Positions 8,672 through 64,000 of a stretch of 64,000 nucleotides of DNA are shown here, piece after piece. Origin of the DNA: Sphaerodactylus townsendi (taxonomy: Eukaryota); the NCBI RefSeq assembly GCF_021028975.2, contig NC_059430.1, positions 37,448,001 through 37,512,000 of the forward strand. The letters are read 5' to 3'. The notes below the pieces were generated by a model, which was given only the letters and a program-made list of their open reading frames with translations, searched no databases and was not told the origin of the DNA. Within the stretch, counting starts at the first letter, position 1. Each line of letters begins with the position of its first letter. The position numbers and the translations under genes are program-made.

Positions 8672-9873
8672 GTTAAAGGCATACATTCTTTCACACTGGC
8701 AAACTACAGCAAAGTGGTTTGCAATTAACGATTAAAACAAGGTATTAGGCTGAGTGAAACTAAACATTTTCTGCTCCTCTTCCCTTCTGTAGCCCCACCT
8801 ACTTGTGGGCCAAATCCTCCCCACAATAGAGGAGATAAGCCCCAAACCAATTTAAATCTCACTTAATTTTCTGACCCGTGTTCTCACTTGTCATATACAA
8901 GCGATGGGAAAAAAAAGAGAGAGGAAAAAAGAGAGAGGAAAGGGGCAAGGAGGAGAAATGCTTTGACACAACAGAAGAGAATTAATTGGATCAGGAGGGG
9001 GTTAATAGACTCAGCTCCGGTCATTTTGGCCTTGCCTTTCCAGAAAATCCAGGCAGTCCTTGTTTGTATGCATTCCCTTGTGTCTCTGCAATGAAAACAG
9101 CTAGACACTTTTTAAAAATAAAAGCCAAGAATTCAAAGAGGGGGAATGACATGTTTTTGGAGGGGCATTTCCCCAATTTGCCCATATAGCTATAAGCTGG
9201 TGTCTCTAGAAATGCCAGTTTCAGAACCTCTGTGACATGATATATATATTCCTGGATGAACACCGATTAAAAAACCTGAGACTGCTAAATCTTTTTTTGG
9301 GGGGGGGGAGGGGGGGGAGGAACAGAATCAGCTTGTTCTCTCTAGGGTTGGTCTGACCTGTATTATGCAAGTAGGGGGTGTACATATTTCCTGCCAGTTG
9401 CTACTTCTGTGTAAACAGGCTTCCTGCTTATCAGGAACTAAATATGCAATAAGTAGAGACCATAAAACTCTTTGAACAGGAGCCAAGGTGAAGCCTCCTT
9501 AGCCAATAATACGTTTTATACATTGAAAGTGCCCAGCATTGTGGGAAGCTTGCTGGCCAGGCCAGGCCCTCCCTGCTCTATGGCACTTTCCCATTTGTAT
9601 AATATTTATCTGACTCGCATATTATTTATTTGCAGTAAGCATGCAACTTATATTAGGCAGTGTCTGCTCAACTAAAAGACATCTTAATCAGATGTTTGGA
9701 TTTTAATCCGTTCATTGGTTAAACTTTGCAAAAATTTATGCTCTGCCATTCTCCTTGCCAAGGAGTCCTTGGCAGTCAAGGCAGATTACAAAAATTAGGA
9801 AAAAAACAATACCATAAAAAAATACACATACGATAAACAATGCAATAACAGGATTGCAAAACTTAGAAAACAA

Positions 9874-10020
9874 TGCAATGCAAAATTATCTATGTTGCCA
9901 GAAAATCTGGAGAAAAATCTCCTGTTCCTTTAATCGAAACTCATTGTGTAGAAATGGACAGGTAGCTCCACGCAACCATGTCATAGAGGGAAATAACATC
10001 ACCTGGTAAATTAACAGCCC
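9874..10020 (+). repeat. Left copy of the 147-bp host duplication flanking the LTR element
   Basis: Matches 13188-13334 with one mismatch seen by eye (catgTcatag vs catgGcatag). Confidence 0.92.
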
Positions 10021-10374
10021 TGTGGAGAAATGGCTCCTTCCCCCGCCCCCTTCCGTTTTCTTTTTCTTTCATAATCTCCTTCTCCAACCAGGTACCAGAG
10101 ATTTGGAGGACTTAGAAATCCCAGAGAAACATCAGGAAATGCTACCTGACCTAGGGGGAAATGATATCTTGACCCAGCCTGATCTGGTCAAAGGAGGGTG
10201 GGGTCTGGGATCTGATAAATTGAGGGGAAGAGAGGGGCGAGGGCTCTTGGCTCAGGTCTCTCTGGAGGGGAGCAGAGCTCTTGCCTGAACTGGGAAGGCG
10301 GCAGCCATTTTCTGGACCATGTGCTCAGCCAGGTAATGTGAGCTCTTAGCCAAAAGCAAGCCCGTTTCGCCACA
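10021..10374 (+). repeat. 5' LTR (354 bp)
   Basis: Starts TGTGGAGAAATGG, ends CCCGTTTCGCCACA; direct repeat of 12840-13185. Confidence 0.93.
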
Positions 10375-10377
10375 ATT

Positions 10378-10395
10378 TGGTGGCAGCGGTGGGAT
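10378..10395 (+). other. Primer binding site complementary to the tRNA-Leu (AAG/UAG) 3' end
   Basis: TGGTGGCAGCGGTGGGAT is the reverse complement of ATCCCACCGCTGCCA-CCA; it lies 3 nt (ATT) after the LTR CA. Confidence 0.85.
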
Positions 10396-10531
10396 GAGAA
10401 CAAACAGAGAACTGGTGATTTAAAACCAAACAGGGAACTTGGAATTGGGCAAACGCACACACAGTGAGAGCAACGGAAGTTTTGTTTTTTTTCCGGGTCA
10501 ACTGGAGTAGGGTCAGAACAGTTTAGCTAGG

Positions 10532-12721
10532 ATGGAGCTAGAGGAGCATGTGAGAATTCTAAAAATGACCAAGCAACAGCTTCAGGAGGAATGTCAAAAG
10601 CAGAATATATTCTGTGAGAACAAGTCTGTAGATGAGATGAAGGCTCTCCTGCTAAACAAGTTGATGGCAGCAGGGGCAGCTTCAGCTCTCATCACCCAAA
10701 CAAGCCCCAGCCCAAAGGATGCAGTCCGGATCCAGGAGTTAGAACTGGAAAAGTTGAGGCTGCAGGCAGAGAAAGAGATAGAACTCCAGTGGCTGAGAAT
10801 CCAGGAGGAGCAACGCAAAGAGGTGCAAAGACAGGAAGACAGAGAAGCCCGCAGGAGAGAGCGCGAGTGGGAGGAGAAGATTCCTAAGGCAAAGAAGTCA
10901 GTGGTTGATTATGTCCTGTCATTCAGAGAATGGCTTAAAGATATGATGAGTGTTGTTCAGGAGAACCTAGCCAAGGCCCAAGCCACACAGAGCAGTTGGC
11001 ATGATAAGACAGCAAGGTCTCGTACTTTTGAGTTAGGGGACAAAGTGATGGTTTCTCTGCCTCTTCGCTCAGACAAGCTGAAGGCGGCATGGGAAGGACC
11101 GCATGTGATTGTGGATAGGCTGGATGATGTTACTTATGCAGTGGCATTGGAAAGGTCTGGGAAAAAGACCAAGGTTGTGCATGTTAATATGCTGAAGCCA
11201 TATCTTGAGAGGAGGATGGTGTTGAATGTGACCAGGAGAGAGGAGGGAGACGAGGAACCAGATGACACCTTAGTGGATGTTTTGGCCCACTTCTCTAAAC
11301 CTGCCCAGTGGGAGGAGCTGGTGTGGCCTGCAAGTGTACCGGTAATAGACAAGGAAAGAATCCTGTCAGTGTTGCACAGGTTTGAGGATGTTTTTAGGAA
11401 AGAACCAGGGAGGACAACCTTGGCTAAGCATGGAATAGATACAGGGACCCATGGACCTATCCAGTGCCCCCCTTACCGGGTGAATGGGCGAGTGCTGGCA
11501 GATGTCCGGAGGGAGGTAGAAGAAATGTTGGGACTGGGAGTGATCCAGCCCTCACTAAGCCCATGGGCGGCCCCTGTTGTACTAGTGGCCAAGCCAGATG
11601 GTTCGATTAGGTTTTGTGTGGACTACAGGAAGCTCAATAGTATCACAAAACCAGACGCTTACCCTATGCCTCGAATAGATACTCTGCTGGATATGCTTGG
11701 ATCTGCCAAGGTGATATCCACTGTAGATCTTTGCAAGGGATACTGGCAGATGGAATTAGAGCCAGAAGCCAGAGCTAAGTCTGCCTTTATTACCCCAGAT
11801 GGACTGTATGAGTTCACAGTTCTCCCCTTTGGCCTCAGAAATGTGCCTGCATCGTTCCAGAGACTGGTGAATAACTTGCTGAATGGCATGTCTGAGTTTG
11901 CAGTGGCTTACATTGATGACATAGCCATCTTTAGCAAGGACTTGGATTCACACCTGGAACATTTAGCCAGGGTGCTGGGTGCCATTCAGGGGGCAGGTCT
12001 CACCATCAAATTGAATAAATGCCAATTTGGGATGTCGGAGGTGGTTTATTTGGGACACAGAGTGGGGAGTGGGAATATCACCCCAATGTGGGACAAGGTA
12101 GAGGCAATCCGAAATTGGGAGGCCCCACGGACAAAAAGGCAGGTCCGGGCTTTCCTGGGCATGGCAAATTATTACCGACGGTTTGTCCCAGATTTCGGGA
12201 CGATAGCAGACCCCTTCTCCTCCCTCACCAAGAAATCCCTCCCAGACAAGGTGGTTTGGACCCCAGCCTGTCAGGCCACTTTTGAGCAGTTGAAACAAGC
12301 GTTAGTGTCCCTACCTGTACTCAAAGCTCCTGATTTTGACAGGCGGTTCTTTGTTGCAACTGATGCCTCAGACTCGGGGATCGGGGCTGTTCTACTGCAA
12401 GAGTGGGAGGGCACCAGACATCCAATTGCATATCTCAGCAGGAAACTGATCCCTTGGGAGAAAAACTTGTCTTCAGTGCAAAAAGAATGTTTGGCAATTG
12501 TATGGGCACTGGACAAACTGCGACCTTACTTGTGGGGGCAAGAATTTACCCTCTTGACAGACCATTCATCCCTCCAATGGCTGCAGACCATGAAGAACTC
12601 AAACACTAAGCTGCAGAGGTGGTCATGGAGGATTCAGGAATTCAACATGAAGATTGAAGAGAATGATGGACGGAACAATGTGGGGGCAGATTTCGTGTCC
12701 AGGAAGGACATGGAGTCATGA
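10532..12721 (+). CDS. Retrotransposon polyprotein, deleted form: Gag N-terminal coiled coil, integrase C-terminal GPY/F region, RT, RNase H (729 aa)
   Basis: WEGPH and VVHVNMLKPY (IN C-terminus); SPWAAPVVLV, RFCVDYRKLN, YIDD at 11909-11920 (RT); TDASD, KECLAIVWA, TDH, ADFVSR (RNase H). No protease or IN DDE core. Confidence 0.9.
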   Translation: MELEEHVRILKMTKQQLQEECQKQNIFCENKSVDEMKALLLNKLMAAGAASALITQTSPSPKDAVRIQELELEKLRLQAEKEIELQWLRIQEEQRKEVQRQEDREARRREREWEEKIPKAKKSVVDYVLSFREWLKDMMSVVQENLAKAQATQSSWHDKTARSRTFELGDKVMVSLPLRSDKLKAAWEGPHVIVDRLDDVTYAVALERSGKKTKVVHVNMLKPYLERRMVLNVTRREEGDEEPDDTLVDVLAHFSKPAQWEELVWPASVPVIDKERILSVLHRFEDVFRKEPGRTTLAKHGIDTGTHGPIQCPPYRVNGRVLADVRREVEEMLGLGVIQPSLSPWAAPVVLVAKPDGSIRFCVDYRKLNSITKPDAYPMPRIDTLLDMLGSAKVISTVDLCKGYWQMELEPEARAKSAFITPDGLYEFTVLPFGLRNVPASFQRLVNNLLNGMSEFAVAYIDDIAIFSKDLDSHLEHLARVLGAIQGAGLTIKLNKCQFGMSEVVYLGHRVGSGNITPMWDKVEAIRNWEAPRTKRQVRAFLGMANYYRRFVPDFGTIADPFSSLTKKSLPDKVVWTPACQATFEQLKQALVSLPVLKAPDFDRRFFVATDASDSGIGAVLLQEWEGTRHPIAYLSRKLIPWEKNLSSVQKECLAIVWALDKLRPYLWGQEFTLLTDHSSLQWLQTMKNSNTKLQRWSWRIQEFNMKIEENDGRNNVGADFVSRKDMES

Positions 12722-12839
12722 AGCGAAGGTCGGTATGTATCCTAATGTGTATCTAGCTGCAAATGACATTGCTTGGATTTTCTGCAGAGCGCCCTTCTGT
12801 AAAAGGGTGCTCCTCCGCTTGAATCTTAGGAGGGGGAGA

Positions 12840-13185
12840 TGTGGAGAAATGGCTCCTTCGGCCCTCCGCTGTCTTTCTTTCATCCTCTCCTTCTCCAACC
12901 AGGTACCAGAGATTTGGAGGACTTAGAAATCCCAGAGAAACATCAGGAAATGCTACCTGACCTAGGGGGAAATGATATCTTGACCCAGCCTGACCTGGTC
13001 AAAGGAGGGTGGGGTCTGGGATCTGATAAATTGAGGGGAAGAGAGGGGCAAGGGCTCTTGGCTCAGGTCTCTCTGGAGGGGAGCAGAGCTCTTGCCTGAA
13101 CTGGGAAGGCGGCAGCCATTTTCTGGACCATGTGCTCAGCCAGGTAATGTGAGCTCTTAGCCAAAAGCAAGCCCGTTTCGCCACA
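12840..13185 (+). repeat. 3' LTR (346 bp)
   Basis: Direct repeat of 10021-10374, preceded by the polypurine tract AGGAGGGGGAGA (12828-12839). Confidence 0.93.
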
Positions 13186-13187
13186 AT

Positions 13188-13334
13188 TGCAATGCAAAAT
13201 TATCTATGTTGCCAGAAAATCTGGAGAAAAATCTCCTGTTCCTTTAATCGAAACTCATTGTGTAGAAATGGACAGGTAGCTCCACGCAACCATGGCATAG
13301 AGGGAAATAACATCACCTGGTAAATTAACAGCCC
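13188..13334 (+). repeat. Right copy of the 147-bp host duplication flanking the LTR element
   Basis: Direct repeat of 9874-10020. Confidence 0.92.
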
Positions 13335-14639
13335 ATTAAACATATATGAATAGGGCTGTCAACTAGTGTTGTATACCTGGTGGCCCTAGAGATCTCCTGC
13401 TATTACAATGGTTCGATCCCCAGGCGACTAAGATCAGTTACCTTTGAGAAAATGGCTGCCTTGGAGGGTGGACTCTATGGCATTATGCCTTGATAAGGCC
13501 TCTTCCCCCCTCCCCAAACCCTGTCCTCCTTAGGCTCCACCCCCCAAACCTCCACGTTTTCCCCAACCCAGACTAGGCAGCCCTGCTGCTGATTCTAGCA
13601 TAGGAAATTCCTAGAAATTTGGTGACAGTGCTTGGAGAGGGTAGGGAGGGAACTCGGTGAAAATGTGGGGGCTTGGAGTCTGCTTTCTGAAGCTGCCATT
13701 TCCTTCAGGGAAACTCTATAGTTTGGATCAGTTGTAATTCTGGGAGAACTCCAGGCCACACTTTGAGGCTGGAGCCCCTACTGTCTCGAAGGGACAGGAT
13801 ATTCTTCTGCAGGCTTCTTGGCAAGCCTAGCCTTACAGCAGGAACCCTTCTCTTTGATCACCTATGGAAGGCATGCCTGCCTCCTTCAAGGATGGCGTTT
13901 GTGTGTCACCTGCAGTTTTTTTTATGTATTCTTCTCAAAAAAATGTTTTAAAAAAAGAATCTGCTTGCTAATTAAAATTAATCTGCTTTTCAGTAAACAA
14001 AATATTTTGATTATTGATTAGCTGATCAAATGTTGCAGCTCTAGAATATTGCATACTCATTTTCCAGCTGGGGGCACTATTGCTCTGGTTTCACCATCCT
14101 GTGTCATAGAGATACAGAGTGTTTCTATTTCTGTTCTCTTCAGTTTGTGGAAGATAATAACAGGAAGTAGAGAAGGAATTCTTGATAGGCCGGTTCCACT
14201 TGGGGACACTTGACCATCCCTTGTGACTCATTGGAAATAAAGTTGATGATGTGTGTAACTTTGGGGGCTTGGAAGGGGAGGGTAGAAAAGGAGAGGAATC
14301 TGAGATATGTGGGATTTAATGCAAAGCTTGTCAAGTCATCAATCCATAGGAGGAGATGCTTTAACAACCCTTTTAAGTCTCTGGTGAAATAGAGCAAATG
14401 GATCAGGTAGAAAGTAGAGGCTTAGGATTGACAGCTCTGAGTTTGGAAATTCCTGGGGATTTGTGGGTAGAACCTGTGAGGGCCAGGTGTGGGGAAGGGA
14501 GGAACCTCAGTGGAATATAATGCCATATTCTAGCCTCCAAATGACCTGTTTTCTCCAGGGGTACTGATTTCTGGAGTCCAGTTATAATTCTGAGAGAGTC
14601 TGGAGGTTGGCAATAGTTGGATGAATCAGAAGGACCCAA

Positions 14640-15768: not shown

Positions 15769-15992
15769 CAGGGGTCTGCAACCTGCAGCCATGCTGGCAG
15801 GGGCTGATGGGAGTTGTAGTTCATGCTGGCAGGGGCTGATGGGAATTGTAGTTGGCCATGCTGGCAGGGGCTGATGGGAGTTGTAGTTCATGCTGGCAGG
15901 GGCTGATGGGAATTGTAGTTGGCCATGCTGGCAGGGGCTGATGGGAATTGTAGTTCATGAACATCTGGAGAGCCGCAGGTTGCAGACCCCTG
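15769..15992. mobile_element. hAT MITE with an internally amplified tandem unit
   Basis: TIR CAGGGGTCTGCAACCTGC; TSD ccgtagaa/ccctagaa; 5 copies of a 31-35 bp unit. Confidence 0.85.
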
Positions 15993-16734: not shown

Positions 16735-16753
16735 ATGGATGTTTGTCCCACCA
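16735..16753 (+). CDS. CYTH4: CYTH4 exon 1 (MDVCPT, phase 1); a second in-frame ATG lies at 16732
   Basis: ATGGATGTTTGTCCCACCA|gtaagt with a consensus donor; resembles human MDLCHP; 19 nt. Confidence 0.85.
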
Positions 16754-19700
16754 GTAAGTCTTACCTTAAAGAAATGTTGGCTGCGCCTTTATGCTGTCTT
16801 CTTGGTATATGTGCTTGAAATTCAAAATGACTCGTCTGTTAAGTATTAAGGGACAAACGAGAAAATGGGAATTGCTCTGATTTCAGAGTGTGACTTTTGT
16901 CAGTCACGTTTAAGCTTTTAAAAAACACTCCCAATGCTTAAAAGAAAATCCAGCTCCTTTGCCGTTATGACAGGAACTGTTTGGAGCTATACCACTGGCT
17001 CTGGTGCTATACCACTTCTTTGGAAGTGTGCCCAACTGAAATTCCTGGGACTTCTTTCTGAGTAAATGTGTATTTGCATTGGTGCAATTTCTGATAATTA
17101 TGAACATGCTTTACATCTGTAAAAGGAAGGCAAAATTCTACATGGCGGTGTTTCAGTGAATTAAATGAATTAAATGTTTCAGTGAATTAAATGAATTAAA
17201 TGTTTCAGTGAATTAAATGAGGGAAAAAAGGAAAATATTAGAATAAGGATATTCCAGAAAACTAGAATGTTGCAGTTTTGATGCTTTTCCGAGAATCTTG
17301 TGTAGGATTTCTCCTTTTCATTTTGGAACTATTTAAGTTGGGCCTTAGTGATCATTTTTAAAATATCAAACATTTTAGGAGATGATAAAATTAACATACA
17401 GCAGGAGTCCTTTTCCAGCCCATAAAGAGATTTCCTCCCCCTGCGCTTCAATCAAATGTATTGGTTTTGACCATAAATCAGAAAGATAATTCTGAAGAGA
17501 TATCAGAGTATAGGTCAGAACGGCAAAACAGCTATTTTAATTTCATACACAAGAGACACAGTGTCAAGATGTATTACGTATCCAGCATATTTGACCAAAA
17601 CAAATACAAAGAAAGCCATGAACACAACAGCTCAATAGCAGAGTCTTTTAGGGTCATAGCTCATGAATCAGGTTTAAGAAGTACCAACTGAAATTCCCTC
17701 TTCCCTGCAGAGCCATGAAAATGTACAGATGCCATTTGTGCTGTGTAAACTATATCTGAAATATAGTTTACATAATCTATATATAGTATAGTACAGAACA
17801 AACTGTGAGAGCCAGTGTGGTGTAGTGGTGAAGAAATCCAAATCCCCTTTCTGCTGAGGAAACTTGCTGGATGGGAGATTCGAAGGAATACCAAGGGTCT
17901 GATTCAGATGCAGGCAATGGCAGACGACTTCTGAATGTCTCTTGCCTTGAAGAACCTATGGCCGTGGTGGTGAACCTTTGGCACTCCAGATGTTATGGAC
18001 TACAATTCCCATCAGCCCCTGCCAGCATGGGCAATTGGCAGGGGCTGATGGGAATTGTAGTCCATAACGTCTGGAGTGCCAAAGGTTCGCAACCACTGCC
18101 CTATGGGGTCACCATGAGTCATATGTGACTGGATGGCAAAAAAGAAGATAAGCGACACAGTTCTCTCAGAACTCTTTCAGCCTCACCTGTCTCACAAAGT
18201 GCCTGCGAAGGGCAGAGGAGGGGAATGCGATTGTAAGTTTTGAGAATAATTAAGGTGTAGAAAAGCGGGGTACAAAAACCAGCTCTCCTTCTTTGCCCCT
18301 GTTCATAGACCTAAGTACCCCACACTTTGCTTCACATATCATCCTAAAAGAGCTGTTTGCAAAACCCCACGTAACCCTGGGGGGATGGGTTCATTGGCCT
18401 GGATTTTTTTTCATAGGCAATGTATTCAGTAAGCCCCCCATTAAACTACAGAGATCAGTTTCCCATGAAGAAAATGGCATCTTGGAGGTGTATTCCATGG
18501 CATCACATCCCTGCTCCCTCCTCTCCCAGCTTCTACTATGAAATCTCCAGGAACTGTCTAAGACTGGGGTTGGCAGCCTTAATGCTAGAACTTTCTATAT
18601 CTGAAGCATCCACTGGGTCCCTGCCTGAGACCAGCTGGCAGAGAGAGGTCCAGTGGTTGGATCCAAAAATTTTAATAACAGGTTCCGATGGTGGTGGGAT
18701 TCAAACAGTGGCGGCGCCGCACACACGCACCTCCAGTCCCTATTGGGCAGGGAGGTTACTTTAGTAACCCCTTCTCGGCACTCAGAAAAAATTAGTAACC
18801 ACTTCTAGAGAAGTGGTGAGAACTGGTTGGATCCCACCTCTGGAGAGGTCCCTTGCATATGAAAATAGACACTACCTAAATCACTGTTCTGTGTCGCTTC
18901 TGTGGGGTAAAGTTCTTAAGCTCACAAACCTGGACAAAGAATGATCTTCTGAGAATTTTTCAAAGCAGATGTTAGATTTCTATCCATCGATGGATCAAGC
19001 AGCGAAAGGCCAATTCTCTTGCCAACAGTTTCTTTTTTAGGATATCTAGCAGCTAGCAACTTTGAGGAAAAATGATCAAATTATCCACCATCTGCCCAAA
19101 AACTGGAGCCATAAAATGCTTGCCAAGAAACAACAAAGAAATGAAAGAGCATAAATTAAGCTAACTGACCTGCTTTATCTGCTTTAAATATGTCTTGTTT
19201 TCTCCTTCCATTTTCCCTTTTTCCAAGTGGTGAATATTCTTTTATTCCTCTCCTGTTTTCCTCCTGATTGGTCAAATGGGCAAATACACTGAAGTATTGT
19301 TGAAGGCTTTCACAGCTGGAATCAACTGGCTGTTGTGGGTTTTCTGGGCTGTGTGGCCATGCCCTGGTGGTTTTAGACAGTAGTGGGATTCAAACAATTT
19401 AACAACCAGTTCTGGTGGTGGGATTCAAATAATTTAACAACTGGTTGTTTACAAGCACCATTTTAACAACCGGTTAAAACTGTCAAAGTGGTGCGAACCT
19501 GCTGAATCCCACCACTGGTTTTAGGTCTTAATATTTCACCCACATCTTTGGGCTTTAGAAAAAGACAACCAGACTGGGGGTGGTTGACAGAAATTATAAC
19601 GGTGCGATCACTTCTGCCAGCATGGTGTGGTGGTTAGAGTGTTGGGTTAGGATCAAGGTTCATACCTTTGCTCTTTCGTGGAATCTTGCTGGGCCTGTCA

Positions 19701-45000: not shown

Positions 45001-48000
45001 GCCCATTGGGCAAGGTGGGCAGCTGCCCAGGGCATCACCTTGTGAAGGGCATCAAAATGCTGGGTTCGTTTTGGGGTATTTTTGTGGTTTTCCATTTTTG
45101 GCCTGCAGGGCGTGCATGTTTAAGGCTAGCAGCACCAAAATTTCAGGGTACCATTCAGAAACTGTCCTGATGATATCACCCAAATTTGGTGAGGTTTGGT
45201 TCAGGGAGTCCAAAGTTATGGACTCCCAAAGAGGGCCCCTATCCCCCATTGTTTCCGATGGGAGCTAATAGGAGATGGGGGCTACAGTTTTGAGGGTCCA
45301 TAACTTTGGCCCCCCTGAATCAAACTGCACCAAACCTGGGGGGTATCATTAGGGCAGTCTCCTGATGAGACCCTGAAAGTTTTGAGACTGTGCCTTCAGA
45401 AATGTACCCCCCGCAGCCTGCAACCCCCATTGACAGCAATGCAGAAAACTCAATGCAGAACAAAGATTCTTGGGAAAATTTCGGGATGTTCTTGCAGGGA
45501 GGGCATTCTTGGACTTATAAGCACCAAAATTTCAGGGTATCATCTGGAGACTGTCATGATGGCAACCCCAAGGTTTGGTGCAGTTTGGTTCAGGGGGGCC
45601 AAAGTCATGGACCTTCAAAAGGGTAGCCCCCATCTCCTTAGCAAAGAATGTGGGATGGGGTACCCCCTTTGAGGGTCCATAACTTTGGACCCCCTAAACC
45701 AAACTGCACCAAACTTGGGGGTCCCATTAGGACAGTTTCCAGATGATACCCTGACATTTTGGTGCTGATACATCCAAAAATGCGCCCCCTTCAGGAACAT
45801 CCCAGAAATTTGCCCAAGAATCTTTGTTCTGCATTGAGTTTTCTGCATTGCTGTCAATGGGGGTTGCAGGCTGCGGGGGGCACATTTCTGAAGGCACAGT
45901 CTCAAAACTTTCAGGGTATCATCATGAGACTGCCCTGATGATACCCCCCAGGTTTGGTGCAGTTTGGTTCAGGGGGGCCAAAGTTATGGACCCTCAAAAC
46001 TGTAGCCCCCATCTCCTATTATCTCCCATTGCAAGCTTTTATTGGCATAGACAACAGTACAACAATAATAAAAACGGATTAAAAAGCATATACAATACAG
46101 GAAATAAATGTTAGGTCGAAGGAAATCCACTGGCGTTTAGTAATTTCCAGGAGCAAGTCTGCCACTATCATACAGAGAGAAGGATCAGGATTGTCCAACA
46201 AGTAGTGTAATCTAATTAAAACGGGGAGATCTGGTAAATGTAAAGGAGTAAGATTCACATACTTGGATCTGATTTCCTTGAATCTGAGACAGTGTAGTAA
46301 TTGGTGGGCCAGAGTTTCAACTGAGCCATCATTACATGGGCCCAATCTTTTAGCCTTTTCTTGCTTATTAAATCTGCCATGCAACAAGGCAGAAGGCATA
46401 ACAACCTGGCGAGCATTATGGCTCTCCTTTGAGCAGGGTTTATTAAGCAATACAGGTAGTGTGCCAAGTGGCCCTGTTCAAATGGGAGAGAAAAATACAG
46501 GGGGGAGCATGTTTTCTTGGCTGCGGTGATTAGGGTAGAGAACTCTCTATCCAATAGTTGACCTTTTAATTTTCTATAAGCTTCTGAATAGGACAAAGGG
46601 CAAAGTGAATCCACTGACAGTCCAACAGAGGCCATTTTTTCTTCAATTATGGAAAACCACGGGTTGGAATGGGTGTCAGAGCAGACGGTGGACCAGGGAA
46701 TTACAGTCCAAGAGAAAATGAATTCGCAGCCAGAATCTAAAAGCCCTCAGCCAAGCAGCTGATTCCAAGGAGTTTTGACCTAACTCCAGACAAAGGGATG
46801 CATAGGGCACGCAATTTGGGGATTAGCTCCCATTGGAAACAATGGGGGATGGGGCACCCCTTTAGGGAGTCCATAACTTTGGACTCCTTGAACCAAACCT
46901 CACCAAACTTGGGGGGTAGCATAAGGACAGGCTCCTGATGATATGCTGAAATTTTAGTGCTGATATGTCTAAAAATGCACTCCCTGCATGCACCAATGTC
47001 CTGGTGCAAAAAATTTGGTCGTGGTGGAGTGGCCGACCATGGGGGGGGGGGGCATCCAACTCAGGTTTTGCCCTGGGCTACAGTTTGCCTCGTTACGCCC
47101 CTGCCCTTTTCAGTAATTATATTTTGGATTCTCCTACCTCCCGTACAGAAAGTGATCCTCCCAATACATGTAATTTCCATTTTGTATACATAGCGCAACA
47201 CGTACATTTTCAAGTTTTGGTACTCATGAATGTGTACTCCTTCGGAAATTGTGCTGAACATTTAAAGGGATGAGGTAAGGTGCACAGTTCTACTCCCCAC
47301 TCACATTTGCAGTGTATGTGCCCTGGATCTGTATGATCACAATGGATCAATAATGCACGACAGAGAACCACTTCCTAAATGAGGTTTTGTTTTTGGCAAA
47401 GCAGGGCTGCTTAGAATGCCAGAGGGTTTCACAAGGTCAACACCCCTTACGAAGTGCCCATACTAATTCTGCAACGCCTCTCAAATTCAGCATCCACTAT
47501 ATAAAATTGTGGTCTTCACTGGACTGTCGCTCCGGTTGCACCTCTGATGTACAGTGCCCTCCTAAGCAGAGTTGCACCCTCAGTAGATTTTTTTGGTGCT
47601 ATTTTTTGAATGTCAAATCGCAGGTAACTAATGGTGACTCCATAGGGTTTTCAAAATGGTTTGCCATTGACTTCCTCCATGTCATGACCCTGCTAGTCCT
47701 TGGGAGTTACTGATTCAGTTGCTAACCTTCTTAACTTCTGAGATCTGATGAGATCAGGCTAGCATGGGGCAATCCAGGTCAGACTTAGAATGTTGCTTAA
47801 GATGGCACTAATATAAGAAGCATGGAATGGCCCTTTCTGTATAAAGTCTGGATTTGTCTGCAGAAGCCACTTCCTGCTGGTAGTTTAGAGGAAGTAGCAG
47901 GAGATTTACAAATCTGTGACATCAAATTCCAGAAGTCCCAGTTCTGTTACTGTACTGGACAAGCAGATCAACATTCCCCTTTTGTGAGTGAGCAAAGTTT

Positions 48001-51000: not shown

Positions 51001-54000
51001 TTGAAGTTTCTTTTTTATTTTGTTTGGGGTTTTTGGAGTTCAGACCCCCATTGCTTTGTGTGTGCAGGCAAGGAGCCACTGCCTCCTACCTGTTTTATCA
51101 CTTCTGTTTGCTGTTCTGTGCTTCGTAGGGGAGTGCAGAGAATGGATTAACGATTGTAAAAGCAGGAGCTCAGTTGCCTGAACATGGCATTGACAAATGT
51201 ATAGCCCTTCATAATACTTTGGCAGATGGTTCCTTCCACAGTGAGACTGTGGCATTTCTCTCCTCGGCCGTTTCTGCACGGCCCCCTCGCGCCCCCACGC
51301 CGGCAGGAGTTCCGTCGGCGTGGGGGCGGGAGCCTGCTCGCACGCAAGCGTGCGAGCAGGCAACGGGGAGGCCGGCAGAAGGCAGGGCGGCTCAGCTTCG
51401 CTTGCTGTGTCTTCCTTGTCGCCTGCCGGGCGTCAGCAGCCTCGCCATCGCTGCCCTCCGACCCCTGGAGGTCGGAGGACAGTGTGGGCGGGCTGCGACG
51501 CCTCGCAGGCTTACGAGGAAGACACAGGCATGGGAGGAGAAAGAGTCGCCCGGGCGCTGTTCGCACCGGGCCAGGGAAGACGATCCTCCCAACAACAACC
51601 CTTTAAAGGGTTAGTTGTTTAGGCGGCTTGACGCCTGGGGAGGGAAGAGGCATCAGGTCGCCGCTGCTGCGTTGCAGCAGCGGCGCCTGTGCGAACGGCG
51701 GCCTGGGGGCGCCTTTTTTGGCGCCCCCAGGCCGTCGTAAACGGGCTGTGCAGATACGGCCCTCTACACTCACCACTCTATGGCAGTCTCAGCTCCCATT
51801 CAATGAGTAGGGTTATGGGGAGCTCCAAAGGTCTCTTGGAAAGGCACAAAAACTGGTATTGTGTTCACATTAAGGAAGGTACTCACCCATGATTTGCACT
51901 GTTTTTTTCCAGGATAAGGAGCCTCTAGGGATTATTCCCCTGGAAAACCTCTCCATTCGGAAAGCAGATGACCCAAAGAAGCCAGTAAGCTAACTGCTGC
52001 TAACTTTGTGACTAGGATTTCCTTCATCCCCAGTCCAGGCCAAGCCGCATGCTACAAAATCCTCCTATCCAGCAAATATTCTGGGAATTATATGATCAAA
52101 ACGTAATTCCTGGGCACATTTGTGAGTTTGGATTAGGAGTGCAGCATGTGAGGACCAGGGGTTTAAACCTCCCGCCCTGTTCATCAGTTCTCTTCCAACT
52201 TGAAATGGCCCAGGGACAGTTGTGGGATTCAGCAGGTTCGCACCACTTCGACAGAACCGGTTGTTAAAATGGTGCTTGTAAACAACCAGTTGTTACATTA
52301 TTTTAATCCCACCACCGGAACCGGTTGTTAAATTATTTGAATCCCACCACTGCCCAGGGAACCGCTATTTGCCCTGCTGGGGAAACCTGCATGTAGCTTA
52401 TCAGTACATAAAATTTTCCAGTGGGGAAAAGAATGTCACCTTGACCATTCAGGTCAGAAAGATAACATGGAGAAGTGTGCTATAGGCCTTCTCCCCACGT
52501 CATGCCATGGTCACCTGGGACTTAAATTCTGAGCACAGTGTTCATCTCTGGTATCATAGGGGACATGAGGACTTTGTAATATGGGACTTTGTAATTTGTG
52601 TGCCCAAGGGAGTTACTGTGTGTCAGTGGGACTTTGCTGTCGTGTGGAACAAACCCTTGGCTTTAGTTTTGGGTATGTGTGATTATGTTTGCCATCCAGA
52701 AACATTTTCCTGGTCCAACCAGTAAAACTGTATTTTGTGAGGTTACCAATATTGTGGTATGAGAAGCCAGCCAAAAAATAATCCAAATTTAAATAATTTA
52801 TTTACAGATCACTGTTCTTCCTTCCCCTTGTTCAACAAAATCCAGGATCCTCCACACTCTTGCCTCTTCTGTTCCATCCTTAACAAAACAGGTTCTTTCA
52901 GGCTTTGCCCTTGAGTCACAAGAGCTCTCTGCTGGCTCCAGTCTGAAGCAGTCAGAGAGTCAATATTTCTGAACTTCAAAAATTGTCAGCCCTCTATTCA
53001 AAACTCTCAGGGAGGAGGAGTAGATCAAGTGATACTTAACTGGGCCAGTTTCTCCTCCTTCCCTACTCCTCTTCAGGCCCTTAGCTGTGCTAAAATTATT
53101 GTCTATGGCCTTAGAAATGTTAAAAGACAAGAACGATAAATGAGCCCATTATGAATTGGTGAGAAAGAGCAAAACGCAAAATACAAACTGCTGTCTAGTA
53201 TGCACCTTCAGTCATTTGAATAATGTTAACACCACAAAAAGTAATTTTAATTTAAAACGTGTTCAAGTGGCTTGTCTGTCATCCCTGTGCATTTCCCCTA
53301 ACTGGACAGAACCAGAGACAGAGTGAGGGGGAACTGTGCCTGGTGCGTACGTGCGCCCTGAGCCCCTCCAAGCCCCTGTCCGCCCCCGGAACATCCCTGG
53401 AACATCCCACCACACCCCCACCATGCCTTGGCAGGGGCGCATGCCCGGATTGCCTCGCACCTCCCCCCTTGGCGCCTCTGGACAGAACACAGAGAGGCTA
53501 AAGCGGGCATATTTCTTGCTGAGTCATTAGCTAGAAGGTTGCCTTGTTTTTCGTTCTATCTCCATAAAGCAGAGTCCTAGACTGGAGACTTACTTTTTTC
53601 AAGCAAAAGCTCAGCATTTAGGGAAGGACTTGTTTGACTAGCCCTATCCTGTTCTTTCTGCCTCTGCTCATTCAGTGCACACTGAACCAAACTAGATCTG
53701 ACAGCATCCTCCTGTCCCCCCAGCTATTTCAGCACCTGAAAAGGTGTATGTGGGAGGTATCATCACTTTTAATCTTTAAAATGATGGCAGCATCCCTGTG
53801 GTGGATGCAAGGATGATGTTGTGTCTAGTGTTGCTCTGCCCTTGAGGGACACCTATAACAAATCTGAGACAACAGAAGATTTCTAAATCCCATTTTAGAA
53901 ACTTACAGTGTCCTAAAGCAAGCACCTGACATTTTCAAATTACGTTTGCATGTATGGATCTTCTGATACGAGTATTACCACGAAAATATACTTGAGTTTA

Positions 54001-55622
54001 AGGAAGTAGTTTGGGAAGCAGCCCTTGGTGATTGTTTTGATGCTGCCTACTCGGATCTTGAGAGAACCCACCCCCTTTCACAGCATTTCAATTGGGATTG
54101 TCTCATTGGAAAGCTTACACTGTTCAAGATAAGAACAAAAGAGTCCTACGAGCAGCTTTTCTCAAAGAGTGGAGCATGATTGATTCCCAGATTGCTTGAT
54201 AGCTTAGCTAAAAGTAGGCTTGACAGAAAGGGACACGGTTGCTGTAATAGGATTTCAAATCATGTTTGGTGCCAGATCTTTCTGGAAATTACTGGGAAAG
54301 AGGAGAAAATGGAAGCAGTGAAGATTATCTTACAAAGCTGACATCAAACTGCCCAACTTTCTGGCTTTTTGAGTATATATGTTAACAAGGCATCAGGCTG
54401 GATTATCCTTGCTAAGGATAAGGAATAGAAGGGCCCTTCAGGTGGGCAGCCACCTCTGATCCCAAAAGGATTTCAAACCAGTAATGCCATTTTGCATTAG
54501 AAAAGTGATCTATTTTATTTGTATTTAGGACAACTCCCAAGAGTTCAGGGCAGCGTACATCACTCTGCCTCTGAATGTAGAGCTCCGGTTTGTGTAAAGT
54601 GCTGTCAAGTCACCCAGTAGGGTTTTCAACACATCAGACTTAACAGAAGTGGTCTGCCGCAGCCTTCTTCGGCATGGCAACCTTGGTATGCCTTGGAGGT
54701 CTCCCAGCCACATACTAACCTGGACTGACTCTTCTTCGATTCTGAGGTCTGCCAAGATCAGGCTAGCCTGAGCTATCCAAGTCGGGGCTTAGAAGTCCTA
54801 CTTAGTTGTTATTCCTAATGCTGAATGATAAACTAGTCCCTCCATAAATCTGCCCAGCTCCCTTTTAAATCCATTTAAGGAAGCAACCGTCACTGTATTT
54901 AGTGGCAGTGAGCCTCACAAGTCAATTCCCCACTGATGAATTAGTACTTCCTTCCTTTCTGTCCTGAATCTATTACCAATCCGTTTCATGGGACGACCCT
55001 GAACTCTAGTGCCACAGGAAAGGTAGGAACAGTTTCTCTCTGTTCCCTTTTTCTATACTACACATAATTCAGTAGACCTGTTACGTTAAATAAAAACTCC
55101 TTGACTCACACTGAATGGGACTTCCTCCTGAGTAAGCCTACACAGGAGTTACTGCAATCTAATGTGCTTAACTTGATCTCTTTTGAGTGGCATTCTGGAA
55201 TCACTCAAATTCTAAAATCTTCTTGAGATAAGATCTTGTACAAACAAAACCTCCATAGTCTGATGGCTAGAGTGCTTAGCTTTGCCACTCAGATATGAAA
55301 ATGTGGAGGGTTATCTTAGGCAAGCTGTCACCTCTCAGCTCAACCTACCTAACAAGGTTGTTGTGTGAAGTCAAGTCATAAATATGACACATCAATTAAA
55401 CTGCAGCTTCTACTGCAAATACCCTCTAAGCTGCAGTCTAAATGCACAGTAGTAAGATATTATGGATGGTGATTATCCCAGGGTCAAAGAGTCAGTCAGT
55501 GTCATGAAAATAATAATTTTCAAGACCTCTAGCATCCTTGGCATTGGATCATATGAGATTTATTACATATGAATATGTGAACATATAATGAATAATGCCT
55601 TGGCATATTTAATTACAGCACA

Positions 55623-55654
<32 letters not shown>

Positions 55655-58600
55655 CACACAGAGGGTACTGAAACTCATGCTCTGATCCTCTTCAATTATC
55701 TCCCCTTAGAACTGTTTTGAGCTTTTTAATGAAAACTGCAAGGGCCAGAAGATCAAAGCCTGCAAAACCGATGGGGATGGGAAGGTGGTTGAAGGCAAGC
55801 ACCAGTCTTACAAGATCTCAGCCGCCTTGCCAGAGGAGCGTGACCTATGGATTGAAGCAATCAGGTAAGGGGAGAAGGTGAAAGGGCTTCCTCTGTGGAG
55901 ATAGGAGTGTATTGATCTTATGGGACCAGACAGCAACAGCATGGCATGTATTCTTCCAAGGAGACACGCTCAGGAATAAAGTACATGGGAGTTTTCCAGT
56001 CACAGATTGGGAGTCTAATGTGAATCTAATGGCGGGCATCAATGTCCATCACATACTACTTGATTGTCTTATCACTGGGCAACTATGGGGCAAGTGATCA
56101 ATCTTATGATGAAACGCAATTCCCCATCCACCATCTGTGGTCTTTGGATTGCCAAGTTCTGGCTGCTCCCTCATTTAAAGAAGCAGTCTGAAGCAGCTCT
56201 AGTCATAATGAAGTCTCACGTTATTCAGCGGGGCTTGCTCCCAGTGTATGGCAGCAGGCTGAATGAGAAACTTATTCAGCTTATTCTCATTCAGTGAGGC
56301 TTATTCTGGACAAGTGTGACATTCTGGTGGTTGGATTGGTAGCTGATCAGGAGACTGGGAGACAGCCTATACAGGATGGGATAAGTAGTTTCTGGTGCAG
56401 TGTGGAGTGCAATGAAATCCACACTTACAAATCTCAACTGTAATACATGGAACTTTTTTTTTATAGCTGGGGCTGGTTCTCCAGCTGTGTCCCATCATCA
56501 AAGTGGGATCCAGCAATAGTGATCTGAGTGAAAATCACTTCCTGATTAGATTGTTGCAATGTGCTACATGTAGGGCTAGAAACTTTAAATGGTTCTGAGC
56601 GCAGCTGCCTGCTTATTGCCTAGAGTCAGTTATCAACAAATTATCACTCAGCTTTAAAGATCTTTGCCGGTTATCAGGCCCAATTCAAAATGCTGGTTTT
56701 GACTGATAAACTCTATAGTCTGGGAGCAGAGTGTTTATGGCACCACTTCCTATTTTATTGTCTTGCCTGGATGCTGAGGCTGTTATCACAGGCTGTTCCC
56801 TCCTTCAAGTGAAATAAGGAGAGTTGCCATAAGGGAGACAGCCAGAGACCTTTTTCTGCTGTAGCTTCCCATTCTCAGAAATGTCTTCCCTTTGGAAGTC
56901 CATGTGGACCCTCTCTGGCTCTTTCAGATGTGGATACAGATGCATCTATTTGGACAAGCTTTTTGCTAAGCATTCCAATTATTTTTCAGAGTCGTAATGT
57001 AATGACTGATTTCGTGCCAACAACTGTTCTTTTTATTGATTATGGTTTTCTTTTTCTAAGTCACATCAAGTCCATTGTGCGGAGGTGGTAGTTTAAGTAA
57101 ATAATTCAGCATTTAAGGGTTGTGCAGATTAGAAGTACATGGTATAGATGCGTAGAAGTACATAGTATAGGTAAAAAAGACCTGCAACAAGCCCTGCACC
57201 TATACAAATGTGTGTACATATTCCACATGATTGCAGGGTCCTGATCACTAATTCATCAGGGTCCTGATCACCAACATACATAAATCCATATGCACCAAAA
57301 GACCCATCTAGTCACTAAAATGTGGTGCCCAAAACCCCATGTGTAAATGGATAATGTATGACCTGTAGGCAGCCCTATATGTGCTGTCATCTTTTCTTTT
57401 CTTTTTTTTTGTGAAAGGGCAATGTGTATTTTCCAGGTTTGGTATGAATGATCAGGAATTCCAATTAGTGTTCATGAATATCAAAGCTGGAAAATATACC
57501 CACTTCCCTATTCACACGAAATAACAGCCTTGGATATGAGGAGGATGTTGTGTGGTACAATCTTTTTTCTCTTCTGATTTAAGTGATAAAATTGTAGCGA
57601 CTGAAAAGGGCTTAGAACATTCAGGCATGTGTGTGTAGGCATTTGTCTGGATGCACAGAAACTAGGGATTAAGGCGAGAAATGCCACCTCCGCAGGATAG
57701 ACACTGTTCTCAGATTCTTTGGAACCGGGCAATACCAGCCAAAGTTGATTCCATGGGAGTCAGAGCTCACTGCACTTTTAAGAAATTTGTTGAAAAATAA
57801 TGTATTATTCAGTGGATACCAGAACATCAGAAGGCCTTTAAAATGGTTAAACAGCAGTTGTGTCAGGCACCTTTACGTCAATATTTTGATAGTACAAAAC
57901 CAGTATTTGTGCAGGCGAATGCGTCAGAATATGTCCTGGGAGCATGTTTGCTTCAGGAGAATAGGCTGGTATCCTATGCTTTGTGGTCAGTTAATTCATC
58001 AGAACAAAATTATGCTCAGATAGAGAAGGAACTGCTTGCTCAATTGAATACAATGAGAAAATTCCATCAGTATGTGTTTCATAAGGTTGTTTTAGCTCAG
58101 ACTGATCATAAACCGTTCAAAGTAATGTTTTAAAAAATGAGTTTGTGATTCTCCTGCTCGTTTGCAGTGTATGCGTCTACAGCTTTAGAGGTATTAACTT
58201 AATGTAGTCTATACCCCATCTACCTTGCTGATACATTATCATAAGCTATTGTGGATTCTCCTGTAAGTGATGAAGAACTGGTAGAAGGTGAGACAGTAGT
58301 ATATGAATTCAGTATAATAGCTATGCACACAGAAGGAGTAGCTACTATACAGGAAGCCACAAGTCAAGATTGTCAATATCAAGTGGTAGTAGCCCTTAAA
58401 AGGCACATACGGCCACAGTATTTGAGAGATCTCCTCCCCCCCTCCCCATTGCAAGGCCATTTTGGTCTGTGAAGAATTCTTTATTCTGTAAAGATGGTAT
58501 TCTTTATATGGGTGAAAGGGTAGTTATTCTTTTGCCCCAAAGGTGAAATATGCTTTCTCAGCTTCATGATTCACATCAGGATACGCGGAGAAGTAAAGCT

Positions 58601-60015: not shown

Positions 60016-61833
60016 TCTACCGTCTTAGTTTCCTAATGTTTAACTTTAAGAAAAAGACTTCCTCAGAGTTCTTTCAAGGAAGAAACTTGTGGTACCCCAG
60101 CTTCCTGTCTGAAACAGGAATAGGACTGGTGAACTGGACTACATCTTTCTATTTCCAGAGCCAGAATCTGAAGAAACGGACACAATTTTCAGGAATTACG
60201 GCTCTCTTGTATTTGCAGAAAACAAATGTAACAGCTTCTGAACATCCCCTGACATTTTATGCATCATACAAAACAGGGTTAGATGCTTGTGATCCCTTGA
60301 TCGTGGATCTAGGTCTACATCAGCAGATCAGAAGGAACTTGGAAAGAGATGCAGCTGCCATGTCTTTATATTTTAAAGAACTGAGACAAGAAGACCAGCA
60401 TGTCTGTGAGTGGATGGCCATTCAACTCCCCAATGAGGCGGGAGAAGCTTGCTTACGTGGAATCCTCTCCAGCTTGTTCTGGGATCTCCTAAATAATTGT
60501 ACAAATCGGAGTGTTCCCTAGTATGTCGCACAGAATGAGGGAATCATTGAATTCTGATTCAAAGGGCAGAGGTCACCTGGAGGAGTAAAGGGACATGGTG
60601 CACTGTGGTGGGGTCTGGCAAGAGGAAGCACTTCTGTATTATTTGCTCATAGGGCCTGAAAGTGTGAACTGCTGCCAACCAAGGCAACTTTAATGCTGAA
60701 GTGTGGATTCTCAGGACAGAAGCTTCCAGCCATCTTGGCTCTAAAATGACAATTCAGGGAGTGGGCAGTTCTTACGTTCATTGAGCTGGCTGCCGCATCA
60801 ATGCAGAAGCCGATGGGGAAAGCGGTTAGTCAAGGGATTAGTAATACACTTAAAGGACAGACCCATCCAGTGAATCAAGAACTGAATTTTGGACTGGGAG
60901 GCTTGCATTCAAGCTCAATTTCTGTTACAACTCACGCCATGTCCTCAGACAACTCGTTCCCTATTGGCTGGCTTCAGTCTCTCATCTGTGAAATGAGCAT
61001 TCAGAAATATCCTGGTTCAGTGGGAGCAAACATGATAACTACTCTGTAAAGCTCTTTGTGAAGCAGAAATGCTATATAAATGGTAAATTGGGGAGGGGGG
61101 GTAGTTGGCACAGAATGATAAAAAATGATGTTTTGAAAACTCAAAAGCAAAGGGATGCAAAAATGTCTAATGCATCAACACACACGCTCAAAGCCTAAAG
61201 GATGGACAAATGCCAATTTTTTAGAAAAAAATAAAAATGGGGAAAAACATCTTACAGCCTTTGCCACTTTCAGACTGGTTTTGTTTTATCAACACCAAAC
61301 AGAAGCAGTCGGCATGCTGAATTGCTGTGGTTCTCATTCTTTATAATAATGAGTCCCAGCTGCATAATTTTATTGGTCATATTTATCACCTATCTGGTTT
61401 TAAATTAGCTTGACAACACTTAAGGATGCAGAAAAGGAAGCCTGGAGGGTAAGAACCTAAATTTAGGCCTCCATTTCAAATCCTCTCTTTGCCACGAACT
61501 CCCTGAGAGATCTTGAGTAAATCTTTGAACCTGTGAACTTGGAGTTTTACTGTCCAACCAAAGGGGATTTTTGTGAGACGTACAAGAGAAGCACTGTAAA
61601 ACTCACTAAAACTCTATAGATGTGAGAGATCATATTGGTCATAATTAAGCCTTTTTTATACACTCCAATTCCATGAAAATTCAAGGCGGGGGGACGAATG
61701 CAAAAAGGAACACATAACTGACAGTGTCATCCTTAGCAGAGTGTAAAGGCAGTCGCAGATGGGCATAGGAGGGTGAAACTGCATCTAGGATTGCACTAGG
61801 AATTTCCTAGGATTTTCTGCCTTTTTAAAATGA

Positions 61834-61839
61834 AATAAA
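61834..61839 (+). terminator. Candidate CYTH4 polyadenylation signal AATAAA
   Basis: AATAAA followed by GT-rich sequence; another AATAAA occurs near 61230. Confidence 0.3.
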
Positions 61840-62029
61840 TGTAGTGTCCTCATGGCAGAAATGATAGACTTGTTGGTATGTGTGAATTGCCAGCTAAAAT
61901 AACATCAGCAGCAGCAGCAGCAGCAATGTAGAGGTTGCTAGGTAAGACTTCTGGTGTTCAGCATGGGGTTGCAACAACCTTGCAGAGCTCTTTCTCTGAC
62001 TGACAACTAGCAAGCTTGAATATACTCTC

Positions 62030-63861: not shown

Positions 63862-64000
63862 GGGTGCTGTGTGGTTTCCGGGCTGTATGGCCGTGTTCTA
63901 GCAGCATTCTCTCCTGACATTTCGCCTGCATCTGTGGCTGGCATCTTCAGAGGATCCTGCATCTGTGGCTGGCATCTTCAGAGGATCCATACAGCCTGGA
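63862..64000 (-). mobile_element. Penelope 3' end with a 31-bp tandem duplication; runs off the window
   Basis: Same sequence as 108-205; ctgcatctgtggctggcatcttcagaggatc occurs twice. Confidence 0.75.

Follow-up and report, generated by a model that had tools for sequence, protein, structure and literature searches.

A Gmr1-like Ty3/Gypsy element enclosed by a 147-bp host duplication in Sphaerodactylus townsendi: a probable one-ended germline integration completed by host repair

The window, meaning the whole 64,000-nucleotide stretch analyzed here (Sphaerodactylus townsendi, contig NC_059430.1, positions 37,448,001 to 37,512,000), contains a cytohesin-4-like gene on the plus strand (16735-60012), in which named lizard proteins allowed 13 coding exons to be mapped; the probable first one, at 16735, is a weak match of 13 residues. 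A 3.17-kb Gmr1-like element (10021-13185, plus strand) shares the orientation of this gene and precedes its probable start codon by about 3.4 kb, with no sign of an effect on the gene in this analysis. The element possesses TG...CA LTRs, a primer binding site (PBS) and a polypurine tract (PPT), and is enclosed by two copies of a 147-bp stretch of host DNA.

9874-10020, plus strand: left copy of the 147-bp host duplication
10021-10374, plus strand: 5' LTR, 354 nt, TG...CA
10375-10377, plus strand: spacer ATT, 3 nt, between the LTR and the PBS
10378-10395, plus strand: PBS, starting with TGG
12828-12839, plus strand: polypurine tract adjoining the 3' LTR
12840-13185, plus strand: 3' LTR, 346 nt, TG...CA
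13186-13188, plus strand: ATT after the 3' CA, identical to the LTR-PBS spacer
13188-13334, plus strand: right copy of the 147-bp host duplication

Terminal inverted matches amount to 10/12 in both LTRs, and the PBS (10378-10395) is presumably tRNA-Leu-like. The motifs AATAAA, ATTAAA and TATAA are missing from both LTRs (10021-10374 and 12840-13185), and both carry a GATAAA around position 190 and, close to the 3' end, a CAGGTAA resembling a splice donor.

The coding content of the element is confined to a single open reading frame, in which three Pfam domains and one deletion junction were located.

10532-12721, plus strand: single ORF of 729 aa, gag N-terminus fused to the integrase C-terminal SH3, followed by reverse transcriptase (RT) and RNase H
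10868-10879, plus strand: internal deletion junction at a WEEK motif (alignment to relatives)
11048-11203, plus strand: integrase C-terminal SH3-like domain (PF24626/PF22938), residues 173-224 (Pfam)
11588-12064, plus strand: reverse transcriptase (PF00078), residues 353-511 (Pfam)
12257-12643, plus strand: RNase H (PF17919/PF17917), residues 576-704 (Pfam)

The closest named proteins are both from S. townsendi, namely P0001 (97% identity over 471 aa and 90% over the first 124) and P0121 (86-93%). The longer relatives show the order SCAN, integrase zinc finger, integrase core, integrase C-terminus, RT and RNase H. As in these relatives, the integrase part of the gecko copy lies upstream of RT-RNase H in one gag-pol ORF, with 86-97% identity over the matched stretches. 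This corresponds to the Gmr1-like domain order as given in 10.1101/2025.03.03.638093 and in the accessible part of PMC11117352, and by domain order and similarity the element is classified as a Gmr1-like Ty3/Gypsy LTR retrotransposon. Unlike its relatives, the gecko copy lacks about 850 aa comprising the SCAN capsid, the protease region and the integrase zinc finger and core, and it is thus devoid of most of gag, protease and the integrase core. The WEEK motif occurs at both edges of the missing stretch, where the alignment passes from residue 113 to residue 967 of P0121. SCAN falls inside the deleted part of this copy and is present in P0001 and P0121, the first 124 residues of which match this copy at 90%. 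None of 240 fetched proteins aligned across the gag-integrase fusion, in protein sets that miss most repeats; this weighs little either way on the timing of the deletion or on a possible non-autonomous lineage mobilised in trans.

The two copies of the host stretch (9874-10020 versus 13188-13334) differ by a single mismatch (T at 9981, G at 13295), exactly as the sequence-only reading had reported. No further copy of the 147-mer or of the LTR was detected within the 64-kb window. The possibility that the 147-mer is an exon or an RNA gene was rejected, as none of 50 short flanking ORFs had a Pfam match and the Rfam search of 9000-14200 gave no match. It was likewise rejected as a part of the LTR, since it is positioned before the 5' LTR but after the 3' LTR. 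The duplication diverges at 1/147 positions and the LTR body at 2/299 (Fisher p=1.0, with very low power); this similar divergence is weakly compatible with one event, and the counts are too small for any dating. CpG depletion is alike in element and host (0.20-0.26) and gives no age signal.

At the left junction (10020|10021) the host meets TG exactly, without PPT-derived bases and without microhomology, in agreement with the clean left end described previously. At the right end, the ATT at 13186-13188 repeats the spacer at 10375-10377, so that the claim of spacer letters at this junction holds. The match of the right end to the 5' LTR plus spacer stops at 13188, the equivalent of 10377, which is the final base before the PBS; this position is the predicted end of the linear cDNA, which counts for a one-ended integration. 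A canonical integrase insertion is marked by a 4-6 bp target site duplication (TSD). No such TSD was found when the left flank was compared with the bases after the 3' CA (at most one mismatch, offsets 0-6).

The host sequence immediately preceding the left copy revealed a further feature of the right junction.

9870-9874, plus strand: host microhomology ACAAT, equal to the LTR ACA plus the spacer AT (5-nt suffix match with one T looped out)

The right junction thus consists of a 5-nt microhomology and one extra T, and BLAST carries the duplication on across 9870-9874 with a one-base gap. Given this match of the host to the element end, the length of the duplication is readable as 146-151 bp. 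A microhomology of at least 5 nt, one T loop being allowed, exists at 153 of 60,666 host positions (0.25%), and a homology-blind junction would therefore rarely have one. Integrase joining requires no homology. The microhomology at the right junction consequently favours priming by short homology over joining by integrase. The single T is explained neither by a clean CA end nor by the host and, because host ACAAT matches the element end, it is the only base diagnostic of element origin. A processed end would be indistinguishable after fill-in by a host polymerase, so that the "unprocessed" state proposed for the right end is not established, although the spacer letters themselves are present. 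The host after the right-hand copy (13335-13337) also begins with ATT, the same as the spacer. That only one T separates the element end from the host, and that the host beyond the duplication starts with ATT, counts against the one-ended reading. The ATT at 13335 as the join site was considered less parsimonious, as the insertion would have to be blunt and the template be switched after three bases, and it was treated as a coincidence.

These observations bear on whether the duplication is an artefact of haplotype merging, gap filling or polishing during assembly. The one mismatch between the copies could be a heterozygous SNP, and the divergent LTR patch described below is situated within pyrimidine runs and might have been pieced together as a mosaic from paralogous copies. 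However, if a filled and an empty allele had been merged, a normal TSD should directly follow the CA, and none does; nor does an assembler have any means to invent the spacer at the junction. Moreover, the window contains no N bases and both junction 31-mers are unique. An artefact is very improbable as the origin of the locus; the patch by itself could more readily be artefactual than the duplication.

The left end is exact at its conserved terminus and the right end combines short homology (5 nt with an extra T) with a large duplication (147 bp), as expected if only one end had been joined by integrase. We consider it probable (about 0.68) that the left end is the work of integrase and the right end that of host repair. 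According to this scenario, the cDNA of a Gmr1-like Gypsy element would have been inserted in the germ line by a half-failed integration. Integrase, its own if the deletion came later and otherwise that of a helper copy, would have joined the left end precisely at TG (10020|10021). The right end would have stayed unjoined, and its free 3' end, consisting of CA plus the spacer ATT, would have paired, by looping out one T, with the ACAAT of the host that lies 147 bp upstream, allowing a host polymerase to extend the paired 3' end along the host. Recombination or replication would then have resolved the intermediate, leaving 9875-10020 on both sides of the element. This reading of the mechanism rests on one locus in one assembly. 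The one-ended, host-repaired integration put forward in the sequence-only reading fits this anatomy and is strengthened by the microhomology, which had been overlooked together with the 36-nt LTR patch; the patch, on the other side, needs an extra event. Deletions between short repeats may arise in reverse transcription or after insertion, and the internal deletion of this copy may postdate its insertion. Because the deletion is possibly later, a link between the aberrant insertion and the missing integrase is unsupported. A copy that is also devoid of most of gag and of protease needs helper proteins anyway.

The same junctions could have been generated if the element had inserted normally and a later break at the end of the 3' LTR had been mended by copying, via microhomology, of the upstream flank or of the empty homologue, whereby the TSD was lost and one T was added. 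The ACAA(T) microhomology would serve this repair equally well, and pseudo-TSD models are discussed for HERV-K in the accessible part of PMC5488345. However, a random break has no reason to hit the LTR terminus exactly, the added base is the last spacer base, and the LTR patch is left unexplained, which together make a later break distinctly unlikely.

A one-ended integration has precedents among retroviruses. In the accessible part of PMC5041404, integrase is described to join one end while a host polymerase extends the other 3' end from a short homology, leading to a duplication or a deletion. Among the examples given there is an HIV-1 provirus whose upstream LTR is normal and whose downstream LTR carries a 1-bp insertion, the duplication being 178 bp long; a second case combines normal ends with 152 bp. 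The gecko locus resembles these aberrant HIV-1/ASLV proviruses in having one normal end and another end with short host homology and zero to few extra bases, and its 147 bp compares with host duplications of tens to thousands of bp reported there. In contrast, the proviruses came from cultured cells and were induced by drugs, integrase mutants or mutated ends, whereas the gecko case is natural, inherited and non-retroviral. Natural germline insertions with long direct repeats are known for HERV-K(HML-2) (PMC5488345, PMC4422153, as far as their accessible parts show). Among 451 putative HERV-K TSDs, 8 exceeded 10 bp and 6 of these were 61-450 bp long; for two of the long repeats the empty alleles were verified (PMC5488345). 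The long repeats have been tied to inefficient or aberrant integration with host polymerases in the accessible part of PMC4422153. According to the available text of PMC5488345, they may also be pseudo-TSDs from later rearrangement, a caveat that counts against the one-ended reading. HERV-K(HML-2) is, however, a retrovirus and not a Gypsy element, and retention of the spacer and microhomology at the junctions were not analyzed in the accessible parts of these reports. The earlier suggestion of a germline fossil thus matches the layout of published aberrant proviruses, but the idea is already in print for HERV-K (accessible parts of PMC5488345 and PMC4422153).

The gecko Gmr1-like copy is devoid of a short TSD; somatic TSDs of 23-26 bp have been described for three LTR families in Drosophila (accessible part of PMC8090852), and plant surveys select on TSDs of 4-6 bp (accessible part of PMC6911290), a filter that would remove copies like this one. 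No precedent of comparable duplication size was found for a Ty3/Gypsy element of a natural genome in the open-access literature, and subscription papers or supplements may hold one; the available text of PMC2857682 and PMC5668417 contained nothing decisive in this respect.

The comparison of the two LTRs revealed a feature that a plain integration does not explain.

10040-10075, plus strand: divergent U3 patch of the 5' LTR, 36 nt (versus 12859-12886 of the 3' LTR)

Reverse transcription should yield identical LTRs, apart from scattered later mutations. Outside the patch this expectation agrees with the data, as only 2 substitutions were found in 299 nt (99.3% LTR identity). The patch near the start of U3, however, contains 5 substitutions and 3 gaps (edit distance 13). 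The clustering of 8 of 10 events in 36 nt was reached in 64 of 2,000,000 simulations, but is not significant (p=0.22) when the patch is counted as 3 compound events. Nearby DNA gave no source of either U3 patch, since 158/200 and 178/200 shuffles scored as well. The patch looks like a block from another family member. Its presence counts against one-ended integration as the sole event: either an extra event is needed or it points to a rival, and it is the main support for rivals with two contributing elements. The one-ended reading could be complemented by a separate event, either a chimeric cDNA of two family members, a later gene conversion or a repeat mosaic of the assembly. Gene conversion has been reported for HERV-K LTRs (accessible part of PMC4422153). 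Recombinant LTRs of Onsen are documented in the accessible part of PMC5668417, where a mismatch of 5' and 3' LTR at insertion is not shown, and no report of LTRs that were non-identical at insertion was found in the open-access literature.

A mechanism without any action of integrase on this cDNA would account for the patch directly. An older normal copy or a solo LTR would have been present at 10021 on one homologue, and an integrase-less cDNA would have recombined with the LTR of this older copy just past the U3 patch, so that the clean left junction was inherited; on the right, the cDNA end would have used the microhomology at 9870-9874 of the empty homologue as its priming site. Thereby one event would cover the foreign U3 patch, the right-end spacer and the missing integrase. 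According to the accessible part of PMC11042837, most insertions of Tf1 without integrase fall on related copies already present, and those at unique sites favour homology to CA plus the start of the PBS; the gecko right end likewise resembles the joining of this Gypsy-type cDNA via homology to CA and the bases past the LTR. However, at existing copies Tf1 usually gives rise to tandem elements, unlike the arrangement observed here, and the accessible text describes no long host duplication combined with an exact opposite end. Furthermore, a heterozygous earlier insertion, a break in the LTR and two serial modes of repair are all required, and gene conversion of ERV LTRs offers an ordinary alternative for the patch. 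Hence, an integrase-free origin appears unlikely.

Two contributing elements are also assumed if two insertions of the same family had occurred 147 bp apart on different alleles and had been joined by unequal crossover within the elements. The two LTRs would then differ in origin, in line with the patch. Required, however, are two insertions in the same orientation within 150 bp and an indel, and both the ACA preceding the right junction and the ATT following it (each found at about 2% of host positions) would have to be there by chance; this origin is extremely improbable.

With one-ended integration as the preferred reading, the locus is a well-preserved example of an aberrant insertion of a type already known, not a new mechanism, and as a single locus it changes no model. 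It would add a vertebrate Gypsy element to the retroviruses in which such accidents are known, with junction evidence that is unusually legible owing to spacer bases at the predicted cDNA end and to the microhomology. Since annotation tools that require a TSD of 4-6 bp discard such copies, their frequency among LTR retrotransposons is probably under-counted, and a family-wide count would measure the rate of half-failed integration in a germ line. A more far-reaching but doubtful view is that this germline insertion took place without any integrase, its left junction being borrowed by homologous recombination, its U3 patch being the scar and its right end being primed by microhomology. If this were true, and if deleted copies commonly showed long duplications, spacer retention and mismatched U3 starts, defective LTR elements of vertebrates would have a natural way of spreading by means of host repair.

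Other repeats were observed in the window. The last mapped intron of the cytohesin-4-like gene contains, at 57801-58130 (plus strand), a fragment of the RNase H of a Gypsy-type element that is older and only distantly related; it shares 27-34% identity with the Gmr1-like relatives, and no LTR pair was found around it in 53001-62000. A cluster of direct and inverted repeats at 45100-47000, with 233-nt arms that are 96% complementary and 316 nt apart, resembles nested or tandem non-autonomous DNA transposons. Finally, near-perfect short tandem duplications are present at 15788-15959, 17149-17220 and 63925-63988 (units of 67, 26 and 31 nt, respectively), two of which sit inside palindromic MITE-like repeats.
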